In this document: positions 4,288-53,947 of the stretch, piece by piece
Layout: each line of letters begins with the position of its first letter
Position numbering within the stretch: the first letter of the stretch is position 1
The notes under the pieces: generated by a model
Seen by the model: only the letters and a program-made list of their open reading frames with translations
Told to the model about the DNA's origin: nothing
Database searches by the model: none
Virus record (IMG/VR): IMGVR_UViG_3300045988_118736
DNA length: 64,000 bases
Origin: a virus
Direction: 5' to 3' (one strand)
Program-made: the position numbers and the translations under genes

Positions 4288-4625
4288 AAGACGGTATTGT
4301 ATTGCATCCAGAGCATGGGTTGAATCCATCCATAGAACTATGCATAGTATGTGGCGAAGAGATGGGGATTGCTTTATTAGGGAATAACATCAAAGGGCAG
4401 GCGCCGCATCATATATGCACGGGAGAAATATGTGACAATTGCAAAAAGATAATAGATGACGGAGGTTGTTTTATTATCGAAGTCGAGGATGGATCAGATC
4501 AAAAGAATCCGTATCGTACAGGGAGATATTGCGCGATAAAGAAAGAAGCAGCAAAGAAAATACTTGGACAGGAACATAGTGTTGTGTACATGGAAAAGTC
4601 TGCATACAGTCAAATAATACCATAA
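4284..4625 (+). CDS. zinc-ribbon protein (113 aa)
   Basis: CIVCGEE...CTGEICDNC paired CxxC motifs. Confidence 0.55.
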   Translation: MKDGIVLHPEHGLNPSIELCIVCGEEMGIALLGNNIKGQAPHHICTGEICDNCKKIIDDGGCFIIEVEDGSDQKNPYRTGRYCAIKKEAAKKILGQEHSVVYMEKSAYSQIIP

Positions 4626-5768: not shown

Positions 5769-5977
5769 AATACAGAGGTCTGTTGCTCCCTATGATATTA
5801 GCTGCAATGTGCGGAGATGATGCCTTTGTGCTAAATACTAAAAGGGGAAAAGGAATGCAATCTACATATAGAAGAGAAAAGATTGTCAGAACAGAAAAAG
5901 AATTTGATATTAATGGCACTAAAGTAATGGCATACTCAAGAAAGGATGCCATTAAAAGATTAAAACATAAGAAGTAG
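5765..5977 (+). CDS. small secreted or lipoprotein-like protein (70 aa)
   Basis: GGAGG RBS before ATG 5765; N-terminus MKYRGLLLPMILAAMCG looks like a signal peptide. Confidence 0.45.
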   Translation: MKYRGLLLPMILAAMCGDDAFVLNTKRGKGMQSTYRREKIVRTEKEFDINGTKVMAYSRKDAIKRLKHKK

Positions 5978-6143
5978 AAAACGGATTTTTATGTTAATGT
6001 TAGTTTTTTCATTTTTATTGAAAGGAGCGCCGGCCTGTGAAGGTATGCGCTCTTTGTATTTGTATAATGCTTGACATACTCCCATCGCTAAAGCAAACGG
6101 GATTCTTGGATACAAACGTACGGAACCCCCCGGTTTTACAATC

Positions 6144-6187
6144 GTTGGAATCACCCGCACTTTCCAACTCGGAAATGCCCTTCCGAG
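6144..6187 (+). other. twin hairpins sharing arms (GTTGGAA/TTCCAAC and CTCGGAA/TTCCGAG) in 300-bp intergenic region
   Basis: two 7-bp stems read directly; candidate structured RNA. Confidence 0.4.
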
Positions 6188-6278
6188 GTCGCAAGACAGG
6201 GCAAATATAATGTTTAATTATCATCTGACACATAAATGGGATCAGTATTACCATTAAATAACATAAAACAATAATAAT

Positions 6279-6533
6279 ATGACAGATAATAACATAGACG
6301 TGAATATCGTACCTGTAAAGAATGGCGCGAAACGTGTTGTGGTATCATATTACCATTATTCACGCAAGGACAAAAATCACATGAGTTCCCAAACGGATTA
6401 CGTGTGGGAAACAAAGAATGAAGAAATGTTTAAATACTTTGAGGCCAGGAGGACAAAAGTATTTTATAGTCAGATTCGTGCCATGTGTAGATTCTATGGC
6501 AAGAAAAATGTACGTAAATACAAAAAGCTATGA
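6279..6533 (+). CDS. hypothetical protein (84 aa)
   Basis: ORF; overlaps next start. Confidence 0.5.
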   Translation: MTDNNIDVNIVPVKNGAKRVVVSYYHYSRKDKNHMSSQTDYVWETKNEEMFKYFEARRTKVFYSQIRAMCRFYGKKNVRKYKKL

Positions 6534-7339
6534 TATTAAAAACAACAACCAACGAATTTTGTTTCATTAACGTAAGTTTTTATGAAACAATAGCAGACCC
6601 GCGTCATTTCTTTTCACAGGAATATGATGAGATGCCGGAATATGAAGAAGAATCGGATTTTGATTTTGATTCTTATTGCAATAAGTTTGTTCCTTTTGTA
6701 CAGGAATGGGCGAATGAGGTGGGTGAACGCCTTTATGAATATGGTGTGAATAACATAAAGGTAATATCGGTAGGACATCCAAAAGAGTACAATTATGATA
6801 CTGATTGGATGGATGTAAGGATAGAGTTTTGTGATGAATGGAGGCAAAAGATGTTATCTAACATTGGTAAGATTGTTAATGATGATAAATGCAAGAAGTA
6901 TGCGGAGGCTAATTATCGGTCGGTACCAGGATACATCTTTTTAAGGCCTGAAGATTTAAAGGAATTTGAAAAGAAAATAATAGAAAGAAAGTCGGATTCT
7001 GGATATGATGTAACAATATTATTAAACATGTATCTAACTTTGGCTTTTGTAAAAGAATTTGGATTTAAAGCCGGAGAAGCATGGAGTGAAATAACAGAAT
7101 ATGCTTACGGATGTTTGTCGTATTCTGATTTTGCAACAACAGAGATGCTTATACCAGAAGGTTCGGAGCATTTATTCAAAGACATTTACACGGCAAAGGC
7201 CGACGAATTATATCATCATGTCCTGGATAAATTCGGATGGGCGTGGCGTGATCCGAAATATAAGTCAGAAACAGAATTATGCGCAATGTTAAAATGGGCA
7301 AAAGAAAAAGGCTTGACCATTGAAGAGTTAAGTATTTAA
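6530..7339 (+). CDS. hypothetical protein (269 aa)
   Basis: long ORF; acidic N-region; no motif recognised. Confidence 0.55.
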   Translation: MILKTTTNEFCFINVSFYETIADPRHFFSQEYDEMPEYEEESDFDFDSYCNKFVPFVQEWANEVGERLYEYGVNNIKVISVGHPKEYNYDTDWMDVRIEFCDEWRQKMLSNIGKIVNDDKCKKYAEANYRSVPGYIFLRPEDLKEFEKKIIERKSDSGYDVTILLNMYLTLAFVKEFGFKAGEAWSEITEYAYGCLSYSDFATTEMLIPEGSEHLFKDIYTAKADELYHHVLDKFGWAWRDPKYKSETELCAMLKWAKEKGLTIEELSI

Positions 7340-17473: not shown

Positions 17474-17943
17474 TGATAAGAAGTCATGGCTTATGCCAGG
17501 CTTGCAGGAGCAAAGAGTTGACTCCGAAGAAAAAAAACAGAATTACATCCATTAAAAACAGCAGCAAGAAGAAAAAGTTAGAGAACCCGGATTTATCCGG
17601 GTTTTTTCGTCTTATGTTGGAGGAGTTGAGTACTATTCGAATGTCTATGACTGGTAAAGCTATTCATTTTCCTACAGTATGTAACGTCTGTCACATACTT
17701 CCGAAAAGGTTATATAAGTCGGTTGCCACTTGCAGGGATAATATAGTTTTCCTTCATGAATCAGAGCATACGGTATTCGACATGTATCTTGACCGGATGG
17801 AATTTGATAAACTTGAAACAGAATTTCCTTTTGTGTGGAAGTATGCGGTAAAGAAGGTGCTGGATATGGAAAGCAGGGGAATGATTAAAGAAAGAGGTAG
17901 ATTAATTATTGAAATAATTGACAGATATGAGAAAACTTTATAA
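17419..17943 (+). CDS. zinc-ribbon protein with HNH-like nuclease motif (174 aa)
   Basis: CERCG...CQAC ribbon; CNVCHILPK...NIVFLHESEH resembles HNH core. Confidence 0.4.
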   Translation: MESKEKKLYVCERCGRKVMIRSHGLCQACRSKELTPKKKNRITSIKNSSKKKKLENPDLSGFFRLMLEELSTIRMSMTGKAIHFPTVCNVCHILPKRLYKSVATCRDNIVFLHESEHTVFDMYLDRMEFDKLETEFPFVWKYAVKKVLDMESRGMIKERGRLIIEIIDRYEKTL

Positions 17944-18103
17944 AATAAGAATAGAAGCTGACGATGAAACTATCTTTTATGCTCACATACAGAGAGAAAG
18001 TTATGGTAAGGATATAGCTATCGCAGTGAAAGATAGAGATAAAGATGAAGTGGAAACAGTGTTACATTGTATTAAAGAAGAATTGATTAGAGGAAGATCA
18101 TGA
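17918..18103 (+). CDS. hypothetical protein (61 aa)
   Basis: short ORF. Confidence 0.35.
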   Translation: MTDMRKLYKIRIEADDETIFYAHIQRESYGKDIAIAVKDRDKDEVETVLHCIKEELIRGRS

Positions 18104-31387: not shown

Positions 31388-31740
31388 ACAACAAGAGAAG
31401 AAAAAGAATATTAGATGTTATTAACAATGTAAATAAGTATAAAACAGATTTTGAATACATCAAATCAAAGTTATCGGAGTTAAAGCACAACATAAATTCA
31501 GCCAAAGATGATATTGATATGATTTTAGATGAAGAGACGGAGGCGAGAGATAATATACCGGAATCGTTACAAGACTCAGAAAGATATTGGGAATCAGATC
31601 GGGCTGTAACTGATATGGAGGAGGTGGTTGATGACATGGAAGGCATTATAAATGATATAGATGATGTGATTTCAACCATAGATGGGAGCATTAAAACCAT
31701 AAATGGTTCTATTAAAGTAAATTTGGAAGGAATAATATGA
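31384..31740 (+). CDS. highly acidic protein (118 aa), possible DNA mimic
   Basis: D/E-rich throughout; ATGA overlap with helicase. Confidence 0.45.
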   Translation: MNNKRRKRILDVINNVNKYKTDFEYIKSKLSELKHNINSAKDDIDMILDEETEARDNIPESLQDSERYWESDRAVTDMEEVVDDMEGIINDIDDVISTIDGSIKTINGSIKVNLEGII

Positions 31741-32577: not shown

Positions 32578-32578
32578 T

Positions 32579-32866
32579 ATGGGAGTAAAAGAAATAAGAG
32601 AACTACTTAGACTCTACAATCTCGAACATAGTGTCGTCCAGAACAAAAGCTCTGGGCGCTATTCTATTATTCTTCACAATAACATCATAGGAACGAACGT
32701 AGATGGAGAGAAGGTAGTTGTATTCAGGACCATTCCGGAAGGAAGCAACACGTTCTCTATGGAACGAAATAGATTCTATGAGGAATTTGTAGAGGTTTTT
32801 GATGACGATAAGGCGATTGAAGCCGTAAGACAATATTTTGAGAATAACAGGAATGATAGAGTGTAA
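32579..32866 (+). CDS. hypothetical protein (95 aa)
   Basis: ORF. Confidence 0.5.
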   Translation: MGVKEIRELLRLYNLEHSVVQNKSSGRYSIILHNNIIGTNVDGEKVVVFRTIPEGSNTFSMERNRFYEEFVEVFDDDKAIEAVRQYFENNRNDRV

Positions 32867-33476: not shown

Positions 33477-33781
33477 CAAAAGAACAAATGATTCAACTGT
33501 TAGACACAGAGCTTGATGCAATGAACAAACATAGAAGTAATATTGAAAGAATTAAAAAGGAATATTTCGATTCTGTTTATGGATTCAAGAAGGGAGATAA
33601 AGTGAACGTTCTTTACAAACGTTCGAAAGTACCTCTTGTTGGTTTCTTCAAGAGCGTTCAAATCATGAGTACTGGAACAGTTATATTTACAATCCAGGAA
33701 GTTAATAAAGAAGGAAGACCTGGAAGAGGATCTTATTTGGTGTATGAAGGCGATTTGAGTGAAATCAAAAAAGTAGAATAA
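33473..33781 (+). CDS. hypothetical protein (102 aa)
   Basis: ATGA overlap. Confidence 0.5.
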   Translation: MTKEQMIQLLDTELDAMNKHRSNIERIKKEYFDSVYGFKKGDKVNVLYKRSKVPLVGFFKSVQIMSTGTVIFTIQEVNKEGRPGRGSYLVYEGDLSEIKKVE

Positions 33782-35019: not shown

Positions 35020-35207
35020 ATTATTTGGATGGGTATGTAGAGGAGATTCTTTCTGAGCCGTACTATGATGATTATGGCTCTGGGATTTTTAGGTGGTGGG
35101 TGAAAGTATCTTACGTTTGTTATGGCATAGGAGCTGTCACTACCTTAATGTTTGATACGAGAGAAGAAGCTGAGGCTGTAAAACCAGGTTACAAATTTTT
35201 ATGTTGA
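35016..35207 (+). CDS. hypothetical protein (63 aa)
   Basis: ATGA overlap. Confidence 0.4.
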   Translation: MNYLDGYVEEILSEPYYDDYGSGIFRWWVKVSYVCYGIGAVTTLMFDTREEAEAVKPGYKFLC

Positions 35208-36592
35208 AAATAATAGATTCTATTCTGTAATACAAATGTAATTCGTATCTTAGATATATGATTCATAGACAATATTTATAGTATTAAAAATCATGAGATT
35301 AGCATACAAGTTCAACATAGGAAACAATGAAAATATATCATCTCTGTGCAAGATTAGCAATAACTTGTACAATCAGGCATTATATATTTTCAGAGAAACA
35401 CTTTCTAAAGAAGATAAGTGGTTATCCTATTTTAAACTTGATGATATCATGAAGAATACCAAGAACTTAGATGGAGACATTAATTACAGATTACTAAAGG
35501 CTCAATGTTCTCAACAAGTTCTTCGTATTCTTGATAAGAATATAAAAAGCTATTACAAATCGGTCCAAGATTACAAAAAACATCCTAATAAGTATAAGAA
35601 AAAACCAGGTCTTCCTAATTACAGGAAGAGAGGTTCTGAGTTTAATTTGTATTACACGAGTCAGAGTTGCAGAATAAAAGATGGGAAAATAATCCTATCA
35701 AAAAATCTTTCAATAGATATTCCTCAATATGAAAAGTATTCTGATTTGATTAAAGATTTTAAACAGATTAGAATAGAACCATTAGCGTGTGGATATAAGA
35801 TAGAAATCATTTATGAGGTAAAAGATACTGAAGTATCTAAAGGTAGGGAAGAAAAAGTTGCTTCTATTGATTTAGGAATAGACAATCTTGTAACATTAGT
35901 TAGTGAAGATTTTACCTATCTTTTTAGCGGTAATTTTGTTAAATCATATAATCAGAGATTTAATAAAACACTTGCTAAATTAAATAGCATAAAGGATTTA
36001 CAAAAGATAAAAGGAACAACAAAACGAATAAAGAAATTATATTATGATAGAGAACAGTACATAGAAGATGTCTTTCATAAAATCAGTAGAAAGATAGTTA
36101 ATTTACTTATCGATTCTAAGATAACAAAATTAGTTGTAGGCTATAACAAGGGATGGAAAACTGGAGTAAACATGGGAAAAAGAAACAACCAAAAGTTTAC
36201 CCAAATCCCTTTTGCGAGATTAGTAAGTTATTTAGAATATAAATGTGAATTATCTGGTATTGAAATAGTTATTCACGAAGAATCATATACTTCAAAATGT
36301 GATTCATTGGCATTTGAGAAGATAGGAAAACATGATAGCTATTTAGGAAGAAGGAAGAAACGAGGATTGTTTCAATCTTCAGTAGGAAAACTCATAAATG
36401 CTGATGTAAATGGGGCATTAAACATTATGAGAAAAGTAGTCGGTGATTCCTGTGAATCCATTCAAAGGATAATTGATAGAGGGTTATTGTTTAACCCGGT
36501 AAGGATTACGAATGTATTTTGTTAAGAAGGTGCATTCCGAAACTTATAAAGAAATGTAATAGATTTTTATTTAATTTAATATTTTTCATAAC
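35208..36592 (+). mobile_element. IS605-family TnpB-only (IS1341-like) element, ends approximate
   Basis: contains tnpB ORF; both flanks carry AATAGATT and AAATGTAAT motifs (35213-35243 and 36552-36566); no tnpA. Confidence 0.5.
35293..36525 (+). CDS. tnpB: TnpB (IS200/IS605 OrfB-family RNA-guided nuclease homolog), 410 aa
   Basis: RuvC-I IDLGIDNL, RuvC-II IHEESYTSK, RuvC-III NADVNGALNIMRK; Zn-finger cysteines largely replaced. Confidence 0.85.
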   Translation: MRLAYKFNIGNNENISSLCKISNNLYNQALYIFRETLSKEDKWLSYFKLDDIMKNTKNLDGDINYRLLKAQCSQQVLRILDKNIKSYYKSVQDYKKHPNKYKKKPGLPNYRKRGSEFNLYYTSQSCRIKDGKIILSKNLSIDIPQYEKYSDLIKDFKQIRIEPLACGYKIEIIYEVKDTEVSKGREEKVASIDLGIDNLVTLVSEDFTYLFSGNFVKSYNQRFNKTLAKLNSIKDLQKIKGTTKRIKKLYYDREQYIEDVFHKISRKIVNLLIDSKITKLVVGYNKGWKTGVNMGKRNNQKFTQIPFARLVSYLEYKCELSGIEIVIHEESYTSKCDSLAFEKIGKHDSYLGRRKKRGLFQSSVGKLINADVNGALNIMRKVVGDSCESIQRIIDRGLLFNPVRITNVFC

Positions 36593-37081
36593 ATGGAAAA
36601 GAATTTAAAACTCGTATGTCCAAAATGTGGCACCCCTCACCAGCCTCATTCTCCGCACACGATGGATGCAGATGGATTTGAAAGGTGTGAGATAAGAACT
36701 GTCATGGAAGACAGGGGGTGGTGCTACGAATGCTCTTTTTGGCAAAATATGTACGACAAACACAAAGACGATCCGGGATGGGTTAGGATAGACGGTGTAA
36801 GCTGGGTGCTTAAGCCTATGGTGGAAAACGTACCGAGCGGATGGAACAGCCTTGGATGTGGTGGAAGAAAAATGTATATCAATATCGAAGGGAAAGGCAT
36901 TGTTGTATCAAATAACTGCTGGTGTCAAGGTGATGTTTCGGATGCATTCAAGGATCTTATGCCTGATAATGCTACTTGGGCTACGAAGGAGGAATTTGAC
37001 AAAGCTCCTGTAGTAGGATATATTATAGAAGGTGTTGGTTTGGTTTTCACAGATAGGGGAGGTCATGAAGTTAATGCTTAG
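36593..37081 (+). CDS. Cys-rich hypothetical protein (162 aa)
   Basis: CPKCG...CEIR...CYEC; last plus-strand gene before terminators. Confidence 0.5.
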   Translation: MEKNLKLVCPKCGTPHQPHSPHTMDADGFERCEIRTVMEDRGWCYECSFWQNMYDKHKDDPGWVRIDGVSWVLKPMVENVPSGWNSLGCGGRKMYINIEGKGIVVSNNCWCQGDVSDAFKDLMPDNATWATKEEFDKAPVVGYIIEGVGLVFTDRGGHEVNA

Positions 37082-37087
37082 AAACTT

Positions 37088-37110
37088 AGGTAATTATATA
37101 CCTTTTTTTT
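37088..37110 (+). terminator. terminator AGGTA-ATTATA-TACCT then T8 for plus-strand block
   Basis: 5-bp stem plus T8 right after 36593..37081. Confidence 0.65.
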
Positions 37111-37156
37111 CATAACAAAAGAAACCGGTTCTCTATCATCTCTGACTGAGGACCGG
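37111..37156 (-). terminator. terminator for minus-strand giant gene (stem CCGGTTCTC / GAGGACCGG, T-rich on minus)
   Basis: 9-bp stem with one GU, 14-nt loop; convergent with 37088 terminator. Confidence 0.55.
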
Positions 37157-46458: not shown

Positions 46459-46674
46459 TTATTTTGGCAAAATATTCATATAACACGGTACATCCACCAC
46501 ATCTCTTCTACGGATGCGCTTATCAAAATAGGAAACCATATAAGTATTTTTACCTTCGTGATCAGGTCTGGGATCAAAGCATTCAAAAACGAATCTTGTT
46601 CTACCTTCAAGATGACCAAACATGAAAACAAATTCGCCACCGTATCTTTTATTAGCCAATTCTTCTACGGTCAT
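46459..46674 (-). CDS. hypothetical protein (71 aa)
   Basis: ORF. Confidence 0.4.
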   Translation of the reverse strand: MTVEELANKRYGGEFVFMFGHLEGRTRFVFECFDPRPDHEGKNTYMVSYFDKRIRRRDVVDVPCYMNILPK

Positions 46675-46898
46675 AATCTGTCCCCTCCTAATCCTGAATT
46701 GATGCTAACATACTTGACACGGACATCATTTCCACGTCCAAGCTGACCCCAGCCGGGCGATGGCGTTCCCTTAGCCGGAGCAGGGACAGCCCTAAGCCGA
46801 GACCAGTCCTGCTTTTGCCTCATGACTTCAGCCTCTTTGTAATACCGGTTACACAGTTCTTGATCTTCGTAACCAACGTAATCTTCCTTATTTTCCAT
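46671..46898 (-). CDS. hypothetical protein (75 aa)
   Basis: first gene after 470-bp intergenic region. Confidence 0.4.
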   Translation of the reverse strand: MENKEDYVGYEDQELCNRYYKEAEVMRQKQDWSRLRAVPAPAKGTPSPGWGQLGRGNDVRVKYVSINSGLGGDRL

Positions 46899-50536: not shown

Positions 50537-50956
50537 TTATTTCTTATTATATATGTAAAATATTTTATACATTTTTTTATTATACCTATCGATAGATCTA
50601 TGTATTATATCTAATACCCGATCGTCATTTTTAATATTACAACAATCAAATATATCATAAATAAAATCTTTAAATAAAGATCTATCACACTTCATATAGA
50701 TGATACACAGAATCGATTTGGGGAATAAATAATAGTCATGCCTAAATACATGACTATTATTATCTATTATTTGTTCTCCATTATTATCATATCTATATGA
50801 TATATAATCTATTCCATCCTTAAAATTAAAAGATGATATTACATCCTTAATCCAATGTTTAAAATCATACTTACATTCTAACAATTTATGAACATGTTTT
50901 GCGTCAATCATTTTTCTGTCGTTTATTAACACAAAAGGAATACAAGTATTATCCAT
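50537..50956 (-). CDS. hypothetical protein (139 aa) in AT-rich island
   Basis: only sizeable ORF in 1.5-kb AT-rich gap. Confidence 0.4.
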   Translation of the reverse strand: MDNTCIPFVLINDRKMIDAKHVHKLLECKYDFKHWIKDVISSFNFKDGIDYISYRYDNNGEQIIDNNSHVFRHDYYLFPKSILCIIYMKCDRSLFKDFIYDIFDCCNIKNDDRVLDIIHRSIDRYNKKMYKIFYIYNKK

Positions 50957-51665: not shown

Positions 51666-53921
51666 TTACCTGCATTCCAATTTATTAAGATCATCCAATT
51701 CAGACTTGCTTACGGTCATATCTTGCGTCAAGCCAGATTTGTTTTGGTATGGAGCGTAATCGGTTTCTACCGTCTTAGCCTTCTGAGTAGAATCGTATTT
51801 CACCTCCGATTCGGTTCCTGTTAGATTTTGGTAGATAGAGCCGGAACTACTTTCGCCAACTTTAGTGAACACCATGTCTCCTATTCTGATAAAATTATCA
51901 TACAAACCTTCTACGATAACATTATCATCCTGCTTAGTTATGTTATGATCCCGAACCTCATTTAAGAGATTAGGATGTTTCGTAAAAAGATCGTGATAGA
52001 AATCAGAACCGGCATATAACATATCATAATAATCCAAATAGAACAGATCTGTAAAAGAAGGATCGGTGCTGCTCATGCTATACTCAAATAACTGCTCACG
52101 ATCATTACCTGCCAAAGATAGTTCAATTTGTTTTAACGTATCCGGATCTGAAACGGTAAGACCCAGTAAATGATCTGGTTTAAAGTCAAGATACTTGTAT
52201 GCCCCTTCGTACACTTCCGTATTATGAAGCTTATTTTCAAGATAAGATTGGTATAAATCGAATAAGAGTAAAGGATTCTCTTTGTCCTGCTTTCTGTTTA
52301 TGTATCGGCTAAACTCCCGTTCTTCATTAACATACGGGCTTCCAGGAACAACAAGATGACCGAACGCCAATCTGGTAGCATTCATCTCTTCCGTATTCTG
52401 AGAATCGGTATAAGACAGGACGTATTTTTTAATAGAATCAGCAAGGGCCTTACTATCTACGTTTTTCACGCGGAGCTTATCTAAAACACCATCCTTAAAA
52501 CAATATTCAGGATAGATACCAGGTGGGAAATAAGTTAGACTCCGCTTGGCAAGCTCGGCAGCTATATCGTACAAATCACCTAAATTATCTCTTTCTACCT
52601 TATGATATAGGTTTCCACCAAGATAAAGCAGAGAATGATTTTCAAATGCCGATACCGGATCTATGTCAGATTCCATATAAACGATATTCATATTATCCAT
52701 ATACTCTGGCAGAAACATAACACGGCGATCCTGGCTATCTCCAAGAACGTCATCGATAGCAGAAGCTAAGGTAGGAGCATAAGTATCATCGTTGCGCCTT
52801 GCTACATAAATATCAAGATCCAGCATCAAGCTATCAATTTTATTCAGCGATTCTTCTGTTCCGTCATATGCCTTAGACACGCCTACGATATCTATACCAA
52901 GACCTACACAAGCCTCTTCTACATCCCATATCATACTTCTAAGGTCTTCTTCTGTATCAGCATTAACCCTGTTTAGAAAGGCTGATATACGAGCTCGTAA
53001 TGACTCAGATCCAATAGGGCTGTAATAAGCATAATCTTGCAACTTTGATAATGACCGTCTCTTCCCTTCTACGATATTATTATCTTCTAAAGCCACAACC
53101 GGAACGATGTTCATATTCGAAAATTCGTTGAACAGCGACAAGGCAAAACTCTTATCCGACTGATATCTTTCAACTAACTCCGGATATGAATCAGATAAAG
53201 ATTCGAAAGCAGCATCAAACTCTGAAGCAACACTAATACCTCCTACTGTATTTTTTATAACCTCGTAAACTTCAGCCGGATTATATGATGCTCTCTTTCC
53301 TAATTTATTGAAGACACCATTTTTATACACAACAGGACCGTATGGTTTTTCTACGGTTGTGAAGTAAGACTCTTTCCCGAGATCGTGTTCGTTATTGGAA
53401 TAATCTAATAATAACCTCATAAAAGAGCTGACCTCATTAAGTACAGAAGGATTATCTAATATCCTACTTATCTCTGTCTCATTGTACAAGCCGGATCTCC
53501 TTAGATTTTCTTCATTTAGGATAAGATTACCATCCACATAAAAAGAGCTTCTAACTCTATTAATAAGAGATCGTATGCTATATATGGAATTGGATATCAT
53601 AACATCTCTTACATCCTTAACATCCTGAGCCGTTAAAGGATCAGCAAAATAAGTCTGACGCTTCATATACGACAGCACATCTTCTAAAAGAGGTTCGCCA
53701 TTGGAATCGGTGTTAAACATCTCCCCTGGAGCCGGGTTATTCCAATGACCGTAATACGACAAAAAACCAGGAGTGTAAGCCTTAGCCCATACCTGAAGGG
53801 CCCGCTCGCTGTTTCCTAATACTTTTAAAGCACTTTCGTAAAGAACGGAAGGCTCCCCGTTAGGAGCCTTAACCCGTTTTATTTCATTTTCCTTTTTTTC
53901 TATCTGACATTTGACACCCAT
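51666..53921 (-). CDS. large virion or tail-associated protein (751 aa), function unknown
   Basis: long ORF in structural block. Confidence 0.7.
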   Translation of the reverse strand: MGVKCQIEKKENEIKRVKAPNGEPSVLYESALKVLGNSERALQVWAKAYTPGFLSYYGHWNNPAPGEMFNTDSNGEPLLEDVLSYMKRQTYFADPLTAQDVKDVRDVMISNSIYSIRSLINRVRSSFYVDGNLILNEENLRRSGLYNETEISRILDNPSVLNEVSSFMRLLLDYSNNEHDLGKESYFTTVEKPYGPVVYKNGVFNKLGKRASYNPAEVYEVIKNTVGGISVASEFDAAFESLSDSYPELVERYQSDKSFALSLFNEFSNMNIVPVVALEDNNIVEGKRRSLSKLQDYAYYSPIGSESLRARISAFLNRVNADTEEDLRSMIWDVEEACVGLGIDIVGVSKAYDGTEESLNKIDSLMLDLDIYVARRNDDTYAPTLASAIDDVLGDSQDRRVMFLPEYMDNMNIVYMESDIDPVSAFENHSLLYLGGNLYHKVERDNLGDLYDIAAELAKRSLTYFPPGIYPEYCFKDGVLDKLRVKNVDSKALADSIKKYVLSYTDSQNTEEMNATRLAFGHLVVPGSPYVNEEREFSRYINRKQDKENPLLLFDLYQSYLENKLHNTEVYEGAYKYLDFKPDHLLGLTVSDPDTLKQIELSLAGNDREQLFEYSMSSTDPSFTDLFYLDYYDMLYAGSDFYHDLFTKHPNLLNEVRDHNITKQDDNVIVEGLYDNFIRIGDMVFTKVGESSSGSIYQNLTGTESEVKYDSTQKAKTVETDYAPYQNKSGLTQDMTVSKSELDDLNKLECR

Positions 53922-53947
53922 TGTAATTAACTTTTTTGCAAAGTTAA

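Follow-up and report, generated by a model that had tools for sequence, protein, structure and literature searches.

The 64,000-nt stretch of viral DNA analysed here (IMG/VR record IMGVR_UViG_3300045988_118736, hereafter the window) carries a tnpB gene, and the described systems closest to it are two families of insertion sequences. In the IS607 family, represented by H. pylori IS607, M. tuberculosis IS1535 and the C. botulinum IS607/CboIStron, tnpA, the gene for a serine-recombinase transposase with a MerR-like HTH and a resolvase catalytic domain, overlaps the start of tnpB, a guide region lies at the right end together with tnpB, and a target motif is found 5′ of the left end; these elements have no inverted repeats, duplicate nothing of their target beyond a 2-nt core, pass through a circular double-stranded intermediate in which right end, core and left end abut, and are commonly met as derivatives without tnpA. 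In the experimentally studied IS607, a GG core stands at both junctions and is used by the serine recombinase, the target-adjacent motif (TAM) TGGG overlaps this core, and excision requires 40 bp of the left end, 60 bp of the right end and matching core dinucleotides (10.1101/2023.11.20.567912). A 2026 review describes most members of the family, though not all, as ending in GG with G-rich TAMs (PMC13565253). The IS200/IS605 family, including the tnpB-only elements of the IS1341 type, likewise combines TnpB with a right-end guide RNA, often occurs as standalone tnpB and homes by cleavage of empty sites, but it depends on a Y1 (HUH) TnpA and has subterminal hairpins as its end signals. TnpB-driven homing of both IS605 and IS607 elements has been established experimentally in bacteria (10.1101/2023.11.20.567912; PMC13565253). 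We can say with high confidence that the element in the window is a tnpA-less IS607-family element with a shortened left end, drawn from a phage-restricted lineage (AT core, TAT target), and its behaviour is probably best understood as RNA-guided homing among co-infecting phages.

A tnpA-Less IS607 Element in a crAss-Like Phage

The tnpB cassette occupies 35207/35215..36594 on the plus strand and stands out by its low G+C content (27-30%, against 38-45% in the flanks). The window belongs to an epsilon crAss-like phage and shares 92% identity with crAssE-Sib (OR575929.1), a human-gut phage of that group; the homology ends after window position 35213 (...TATGTTGAAAATAA) and restarts at about 36590. 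An earlier note on this DNA, made from its letters alone, had described a TnpB-only IS605-family element at 35208..36592 with no TnpA adjacent. Its core call of a TnpB-only mobile element was right, its boundaries lie a few bases from those defined by comparison, and tnpA is missing not just beside tnpB, as the 64-kb window as a whole shows no detectable serine recombinase and no other TnpB. The family label, however, has to be replaced.

Two related loci (L048 and L065; such numbers denote related loci throughout, L001 being that of crAssE-Sib) encode TnpB proteins 90% and 81% identical to that of the window, and in both an open reading frame (ORF) of 201-206 amino acids precedes and overlaps tnpB. 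This ORF scores 169-173 bits against the NCBIfam equivalog model ‘IS607 family transposase’, whose cut-off is 110 bits, and contains a Pfam Resolvase domain. With the H. pylori phage copy of IS607, which combines a resolvase with TnpB, the window protein shares 36% identity over 96% of its length, and none of the roughly 90 related copies is adjoined by a Y1 transposase. A scan for inverted repeats found no conserved terminal hairpins or inverted repeats marking the element ends, which argues against ends of the IS605 type; the two ends, TATGGTG... and ...CATAACAT, have in common an AT alone, which is single in empty sites, as fits IS607. Because relatives with an 81-90% identical TnpB carry a serine-recombinase tnpA and no Y1 transposase was found, the window copy is, judged by its kin, a tnpA-less derivative of an IS607-family element and not an IS605 element.

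Such derivatives predominate in the family, tnpA being kept in only about 6-8 IMG/VR copies against more than 70 without it (about 10 to 1). In L010-L012 the first ~130 residues of the transposase are fused in frame to TnpB residue ~110, which marks these copies as a deletion derivative. Just upstream of the left end of the fusion copy (L010 4390-4900, also in L011 and L012) lies a G+C-rich segment of about 500 nt with repeated GACCGAAGGGAG-like motifs, without an Rfam match or a long ORF. The Rfam group I intron, a feature of IStrons, has no match in the window or in L010, and the left end measures only about 80-106 nt.

Close copies of the cassette are found in many other crAss-like contigs of 90-160 kb, amounting to more than 100 protein clusters at 75-99% identity and 129 IMG/VR stretches. 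All close relatives lie in phage-sized contigs, among which presence of the element is patchy even between close relatives. A scan of 185,579 bacterial and archaeal species, with one genome each, gave best matches of 33-40% identity and no host-borne source. Other TnpB proteins of these phages are more distant: L009 has a second one of 379 amino acids (5885-7024), about 650 bp downstream of the first, and the TnpB of crAssE-Sib (record 64271-65407) is 37% identical to the window protein. It follows from their distance that several TnpB lineages coexist in these phages.

Replacement of a Lipoprotein Gene and Loss of the Left Tip

In crAssE-Sib the corresponding slot (L001 6355-6603) holds a gene of 249 bp whose 82-aa product has a signal peptide of the lipoprotein type (MRYFVLLMALVLSSC...), is annotated as ‘cell adhesive protein’ and has no match in Pfam; the gene is absent from window positions 35213-36590. 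The cassette and an adjacent deletion replace this gene, which relatives retain. The locus had previously been read as an insertion between phage genes, and a discrete foreign cassette is indeed what is found; a simple insertion was nevertheless rejected, as the relative holds a gene in the same slot and the left tip of the element has been deleted by 27 nt. Vertical inheritance of the ORF as an ordinary phage gene had been named as the finding that would overturn this picture; instead, both element boundaries and empty sites exist.

The boundaries are sharp. When the cassette was aligned by BLAST to about 85 crAss-like loci, the alignments stopped at the same bases regardless of the flanks. 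The right end terminates, with minor variants, in ...TTTTTCATAAC-AT in all 84 aligned copies, and the left end in most copies starts 27 nt further out than in the window, at T-AT-GGTGCAAAATAACATTAAAAATAA-TAGATTC... Three copies at the same site as the window element, with element DNA 94-99% identical to it (L013, L068 and L019), read GTTGAAAATAA-TATGGTGCAAAATAACATTAAAAATAA-TAGATTC, whereas the window and L014 alone read GTTGAAAATAA-TAGATTC, leaving a 27-nt gap. By this comparison a deletion between two AAAATAAT repeats has cost the window copy 27 nt at its left tip (TATGGTGCAAAATAACATTAAAAATAA, including the putative T-AT crossover site); because of these repeats, the left junction can be placed anywhere in 35207-35214. 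With the left tip and its putative crossover site gone, the copy can probably no longer be excised and, by analogy with the excision requirements cited above, is probably immobile for TnpA.

What remains of the left end includes a palindrome, AATAGATTCTATT (35212-35224), and two TGTAAT motifs, which are candidate transposase-binding motifs. Motifs common to both flanks had been pointed out before; they are real, one base longer than stated and located in the true ends (AAATGTAAT at 35234-42 and 36552-60, TAATAGATT at 35211-19 and 36557-65), and a motif of the GAATAG/CTATTC type is found again at the ends of a more distant second subfamily. A shared 9-mer is found in 16% of shuffles, however, so that the end motifs taken alone are just modestly above chance. 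In one relative (L022, ~4290-4313) the right end repeats its last 12 nt (TTTTCATAACAT) in tandem ahead of the flank GGGTGTC, which may be the footprint of an aberrant right-end recombination.

Mobility, Target Motif and Putative Core

Copies without tnpA occupy at least 12 distinct flank combinations, and copies that bear tnpA or are more divergent occupy about a dozen more; the family as a whole is found at about 20 or more sites. The window itself holds unoccupied versions of several sites that are filled in relatives, and three of these give clean filled/empty pairs. At window 32578-32581, the empty site reads AAAATAA-T-AT-GGGAGT and the filled site in L086 reads AAAATAA-T-AT-AATGT...CATAAC-AT-GGGAGT; at window 46672, on the minus strand, the element is present in L002-L009; and at window 17929 the inserted copy is the tnpA-bearing one of L051. 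In each pair the empty site has a single AT where the filled site has one at either junction, and no other base is duplicated.

To these pairs can be added the remaining junctions, for a total of 12 (8 window sites and 4 right junctions mapped on crAssE-Sib). An AT stands directly 5′ of the right flank in all 12, and in 11 it is preceded by T, the exception being AAT at 53919; with a T background of ~0.32 we estimate the probability of such a count by chance at about 3e-5. The base preceding TAT at empty junctions is A, C or T; among 84 copies of the element, 83 have ACAT as the last four bases of the right end. The lineage thus appears to use an AT core and a T-AT target, in which, by analogy with IS607 chemistry (10.1101/2023.11.20.567912), AT would be the crossover site and TAT the TAM. 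The contrast between TAT in the empty site and CAT at the donor right end would let TnpB tell non-self from self.

The GG core and G-rich target typical of IS607 (TAMs such as TGGG, AGGAG and GAGGG) were not found here; instead, AT cores and TAT targets occur in two subfamilies. In the second phage IS607 subfamily, whose TnpA is 62% identical, the left end begins TATAGTACAG... and the right end closes with ...ACAAC-AT at six different flanks. The lineage of the window, with its T-AT and ...AAC-AT ends, documents an IS607 subgroup with AT in place of the usual GG; it also departs from the described elements in being seen only in phage contigs, and the window copy further so in having lost both tnpA and the left tip.

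Many of the targets are TAA-T-ATG junctions between two genes, where the start codon of the downstream gene is restored by the AT that ends the element. In the window this occurs at 36593-36595, the AT providing the first two bases of the ATG of ORF 36593..37081. Such sites may reflect a target preference or the survival of harmless insertions. One tnpA-bearing copy departs from the pattern: in L051 (~2345-2360, compared with window 17927-17950) the left junction carries T-AC in place of T-AT, so that the core does not match. Its left end opens with ACGAGAAATAAAATA, which is similar to the target flank (ATGAGAAAACTTTATAAAATA); this could be due to chance or to a preference for targets that look like element ends.

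The TnpB Protein

The ORF at 35293..36525 on the plus strand encodes a full-length protein of 410 amino acids. It matches the Pfam families OrfB_IS605 (PF01385; E 2.5e-23, 83 bits) and Cas12f1-like_TNB (PF07282; 2.5e-12, 47 bits), and it scores 159.6 bits against NCBIfam guided_TnpB (‘RNA-guided endonuclease TnpB family’, cut-off 100 bits), with residues 13-381 aligned to model positions 13-389. The three RuvC-like motifs originally noticed are all present, and curated TnpB profile cut-offs are passed over the full length. The catalytic residues are D193 in IDLGIDNL (35869-71), E329 in IHEESYTSK (36277-79) and D371 in NADVNGALNIMRK (36403-05); D193, E329/E330 and D371 are invariant from the window protein to the TnpB of H. 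pylori IS607, in an alignment reaching 36% identity. Over 54 distinct coding sequences, diversity is 0.02-0.13 for amino acids and 0.1-0.34 at synonymous sites; since the former is well below the latter, tnpB is under purifying selection.

The glutamate sits at the alternative position. In an alignment to ISDra2 TnpB (8EXA/8H1J), which needed a 6-sequence profile because a single-sequence search of solved structures gave one weak match, the canonical RuvC-II glutamate (GTEHL) has N285 of GYNKG as its counterpart, and E329 instead lies six residues before C336. An ‘alternative E’ arrangement has been reported for Fanzors and for a clade of IS607 TnpBs (PMC10711439), and by its motifs the window protein falls in this Ealt / D-Phi-G group, which is related to pro-Fanzors and Fanzors. 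The likeness extends to a D-L-G RuvC-I motif, the replacement of the canonical RuvC-II glutamate, a glutamate six residues ahead of the first cysteine of the former zinc finger, and the association with IS607. The difference is that the C4 zinc finger has been lost, with one cysteine left, whereas the pattern used in the published search for the clade required CxxC...CxxC.

That the finger is degenerate had been recognised from the start: there is no CxxC pair, and C336 and H347 are its sole remnants. What needs correcting is how the loss is read, as the CxxC...CxxC finger is missing in all six aligned proteins. Because these include H. pylori IS607 TnpB, the loss is a character of the clade, found together with the displaced glutamate, and not decay, and its use as a mark of decay or domestication was rejected. 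Nor does it exclude membership among TnpBs, because loss of the finger in large TnpB branches has already been described and the finger is treated as dispensable in some of them (PMC10691335). The RIIIr-4 clade of Altae-Tran et al., which lacks the finger and has histidine in place of the RuvC-III aspartate, was also considered and rejected, the aspartate of NADVN being present.

A Candidate Guide RNA and Its Targets

An omega RNA (guide RNA) had been proposed to lie in the 3′ end of the element and the ~70 nt downstream, and this region does look like a guide-RNA scaffold in its conserved structure, compensatory pairs and suppressed synonymous change. A consensus computed by RNAalifold from the last ~230 nt of 15 diverse copies contains helices at 36439-44/36472-77, 36448-56/36461-69, 36481-86/36492-97, 36499-503/36543-47, 36510-19/36528-37 and 36551-67/36572-87, along with two further and weakly supported helices from 36391 on. 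In this structure 97% of cells are paired, against 35-47% when the partners are slid. Compensatory changes occur in 7 pairs against 2.4 in shuffles, 7 being reached by 1 of 500 shuffles, and four of the seven are in the hairpin 36510-19/36528-37, which spans the stop codon of tnpB. Synonymous diversity in the last 30 codons, at 0.096, is the lowest in the gene. The 3′ end of tnpB and the right end thus resemble the scaffold of a guide RNA, and we infer with some reserve that such an RNA is produced.

The guide itself would come from the adjacent phage DNA: the predicted guide RNA would continue past the right end into 36595-36614 (GGAAAAGAATTTAAAACTCG), in the first codons of ORF 36593..37081. 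A search of IMG/VR for GGAAAAGAATTTAAAACTCG, with G or T allowed at position 7, returned 91 contigs. In 80 of them a TAT at the end of the lipoprotein gene stands in front of the match; GAT takes its place in 9, and the element's right end in 2. The TAT-flanked matches comprise 32 that are perfect and 48 with T at position 7. Because TAT-preceded matches are found in 80 of 91 contigs, natural genomes with the predicted cleavable allele are common. The G/T polymorphism at guide position 7 (window 36601) encodes K or N at residue 3 of the 162-aa ORF, and may be neutral or an escape variant.

The relationship also runs the other way, as the guides of sibling elements match the window perfectly over 20 nt at 32581, 17929, 50927, 31734 (minus strand) and 53919 (minus strand). 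With the site at 46672, which has 2 mismatches, this makes six unoccupied sites, most of which are stop/start gene junctions. Under the rules deduced here the window genome would be cleavable by sibling elements.

Probable RNA-Guided Homing and Its Alternatives

Taken as a whole, the locus is probably best explained as a non-autonomous IS607-family element that engages in RNA-guided homing among co-infecting crAss-like phages. In the mechanism that we envision, full-length members would move by serine-recombinase cut-and-paste at T-AT sites, and copies without tnpA would be mobilised in trans. TnpB together with the right-end RNA would cut co-infecting sibling genomes that bear TAT followed by a guide match, that is, alleles without the element, and recombinational repair off the carrier genome would then copy the element in, here replacing the 82-aa lipoprotein gene. 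The net effect would be that of an RNA-guided homing endonuclease gene in a phage population. That TnpB acts as a homing nuclease against sibling genomes lacking the element is a conclusion we hold with moderate confidence.

Close parallels are also offered by the free-standing homing endonucleases of T4-like phages (Seg, Mob) and intron endonucleases, which resemble the window element as nuclease genes lying amid conserved phage genes, patchily distributed and at the boundary of a variable segment, and in the predicted cutting of the element-free allele during co-infection. The difference is that TnpB would recognise its target by an RNA guide and a short motif rather than by protein, and that the window element has, or had, a transposition route to new sites.

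Several results weigh against homing by this route. The covariation is modest, the copies being close relatives, and an Rfam search of the region, the whole window and L010 returned chance-level matches only, with no credible RNA family and no RAGATH-18, the RNA associated with IS607 elements, which also sets this right end apart from those of its described counterparts. The mismatch at position 7 in 48 of the 80 candidate targets might block cleavage, and the TAM was deduced from just 12 junctions, four of them from one hotspot. Homing would also require host recombination and sufficiently frequent co-infection.

It seems unlikely that the window element is an inert relic, a copy stranded without tnpA and with a cut-down left end, carried along with a TnpB that has no current activity. 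The lack of tnpA in the window and the deleted left tip are what would be expected of a relic, and broken copies do occur in relatives, such as L053 (with a 176-aa ORF), L085 and the L010 fusion. A relic would not, however, be expected to retain a full-length ORF with every catalytic residue, purifying selection over 54 distinct coding sequences and a right end conserved along with its structure; furthermore, copies without tnpA outnumber those with it by about 10 to 1 and yet sit at many precise sites. We give still less credence to a role as a weapon in phage-phage competition, instead of or besides homing, in which cutting co-infecting siblings would exclude them to the benefit of the carrier. 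There is a precedent for such interference in phage PhiPA3, where an intron-encoded endonuclease is responsible (PMC11620839), and at five sites the window does match the guides of sibling elements perfectly over 20 nt, beside TAT or AAT, with targets at the start codons of conserved genes. Plain selfish homing fits the same evidence, though, and the relatives are ~92% similar, enough for gene conversion to rescue cut genomes.

The earlier note had allowed for either a selfish element or a domesticated one, and of these the selfish alternative is supported. A domesticated RNA-guided regulator or anti-host tool, comparable to TldR and binding or cutting a fixed host or phage target for the benefit of the phage, is very improbable, even though the copy is probably immobile and shares its transcriptional direction with the surrounding operon. 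TldR-type proteins are nuclease-dead, whereas the RuvC triad is intact here; the guide is adjacent phage sequence and differs at each of the many insertion sites; the element is patchy among close relatives (PMC11054128) and has no fixed syntenic position; and no conserved, site-independent guide matching a host or phage regulatory region was seen.

Selfish homing, then, is the account we prefer, and it can be extended. As a real but not favoured possibility, the phage-restricted IS607 lineage with its AT core and TAT target might amount, in crAss-like phages that circulate together, to a natural gene drive guided by RNA. Each copy's guide would target the empty allele of its own site, siblings would be mutually targetable (the window at 5 or more sites), copies that have lost tnpA and the left tip would persist purely as homing endonuclease genes, and their spread would delete neighbouring cargo such as the lipoprotein gene.

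The element is of a known selfish type in an uncommon host, a virulent-type gut phage, and its target and core are out of the ordinary. Experiments have demonstrated TnpB homing in bacteria and on plasmids; our literature search found no paper on this element family or on TnpB homing between phages, including between virulent phage genomes in co-infection; the crAssE-Sib paper only notes TnpB genes in some Epsilonunovirus genomes (PMC11054128). The family offers a compact natural test, with many pairs of filled and empty alleles, exact guide matches, a simple putative TAT motif, and copies decayed to differing degrees (some with tnpA, some lacking it, some lacking the left tip). In phages abundant in the human gut, a TnpB element can evidently reshape a variable gene region. 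Annotators should not take TnpB genes in crAss-like phages as evidence of a temperate lifestyle, a possibility weighed in the crAssE-Sib paper (PMC11054128).

Table 1. Features of the element and of its unoccupied target sites in the window.
Feature	Position	Strand	Basis or remarks
Deletion scar, left boundary	35207..35214	+	8-nt AAAATAAT microhomology; stop region of upstream 63-aa ORF fused to internal left end
Remaining left end	35215..35292	+	Conserved in >60 copies; motifs also in right end
tnpB, 410 aa, intact	35293..36525	+	Profile matches, catalytic alignment, purifying selection
Predicted guide-RNA scaffold (omega RNA or right-end RNA, reRNA)	36439..36594	+	Overlaps last ~87 nt of tnpB and entire non-coding right end; RNAalifold
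Non-coding right end, terminus ...TTTTTCATAAC-AT	36526..36594	+	Sharp common end in 84 aligned copies with many flanks
Putative crossover (core) dinucleotide AT	36593..36594	+	At both junctions of filled sites, once in empty sites
Guide-equivalent flank GGAAAAGAATTTAAAACTCG	36595..36614	+	Follows TAT in 80 of 91 related viral contigs
Unoccupied target sites	32578-32600; 17926-17948; 50924-50946	+	TAT plus guide-equivalent flank of sibling elements
Unoccupied target sites	31715-31737; 53900-53922; 46653-46675	-	TAT (AAT at 53919) plus guide-equivalent flank of sibling elements

Right-Flank Variants and the Variable Neighbourhood

A scan for sigma-70 promoters and terminators was uninformative, with 9 promoter-like sites against 9.9 expected. 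The copies at the window's own site have a common left junction and four right junctions. The lipoprotein gene is kept from GATCTACG onward in L068, from CGGAGATTC in L015-17 and L019, and from TAAGATCG in L018; in the window, L013 and L014 none of it is kept. Each of the four right junctions follows a TAT in the crAssE-Sib allele. The 32578 site behaves likewise, in that L037 has the same left flank and a right flank starting after the TAT at 32780. Because the junctions follow TATs at two sites, the right-flank deletions are not random. Two routes would fit them: homologous recombination between copies at neighbouring TAT sites, within one genome or between co-infecting genomes, or exchange catalysed by the recombinase between the right end and a T-AT site close by.

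The lipoprotein slot is a hotspot of insertion and deletion, with its four right-junction variants and a copy in inverted orientation in L070 and L083. Two further segments nearby differ between the window and crAssE-Sib. At window 33601-33766 (L001 3602-4893), crAssE-Sib has about 1.3 kb more, including a DNA (cytosine-5)-methyltransferase gene, where 166 bases of unrelated sequence stand in the window; L014 carries, in roughly this region, a TnpB-like fragment (66% nucleotide identity) about 1 kb upstream of its own element. At window 37085-37116 (L001 7085-8544), ~1.46 kb with three small ORFs in crAssE-Sib corresponds to 32 bases in the window. The 33-37 kb neighbourhood is a mosaic of cassettes, present in some genomes and absent from others, amid conserved genes.

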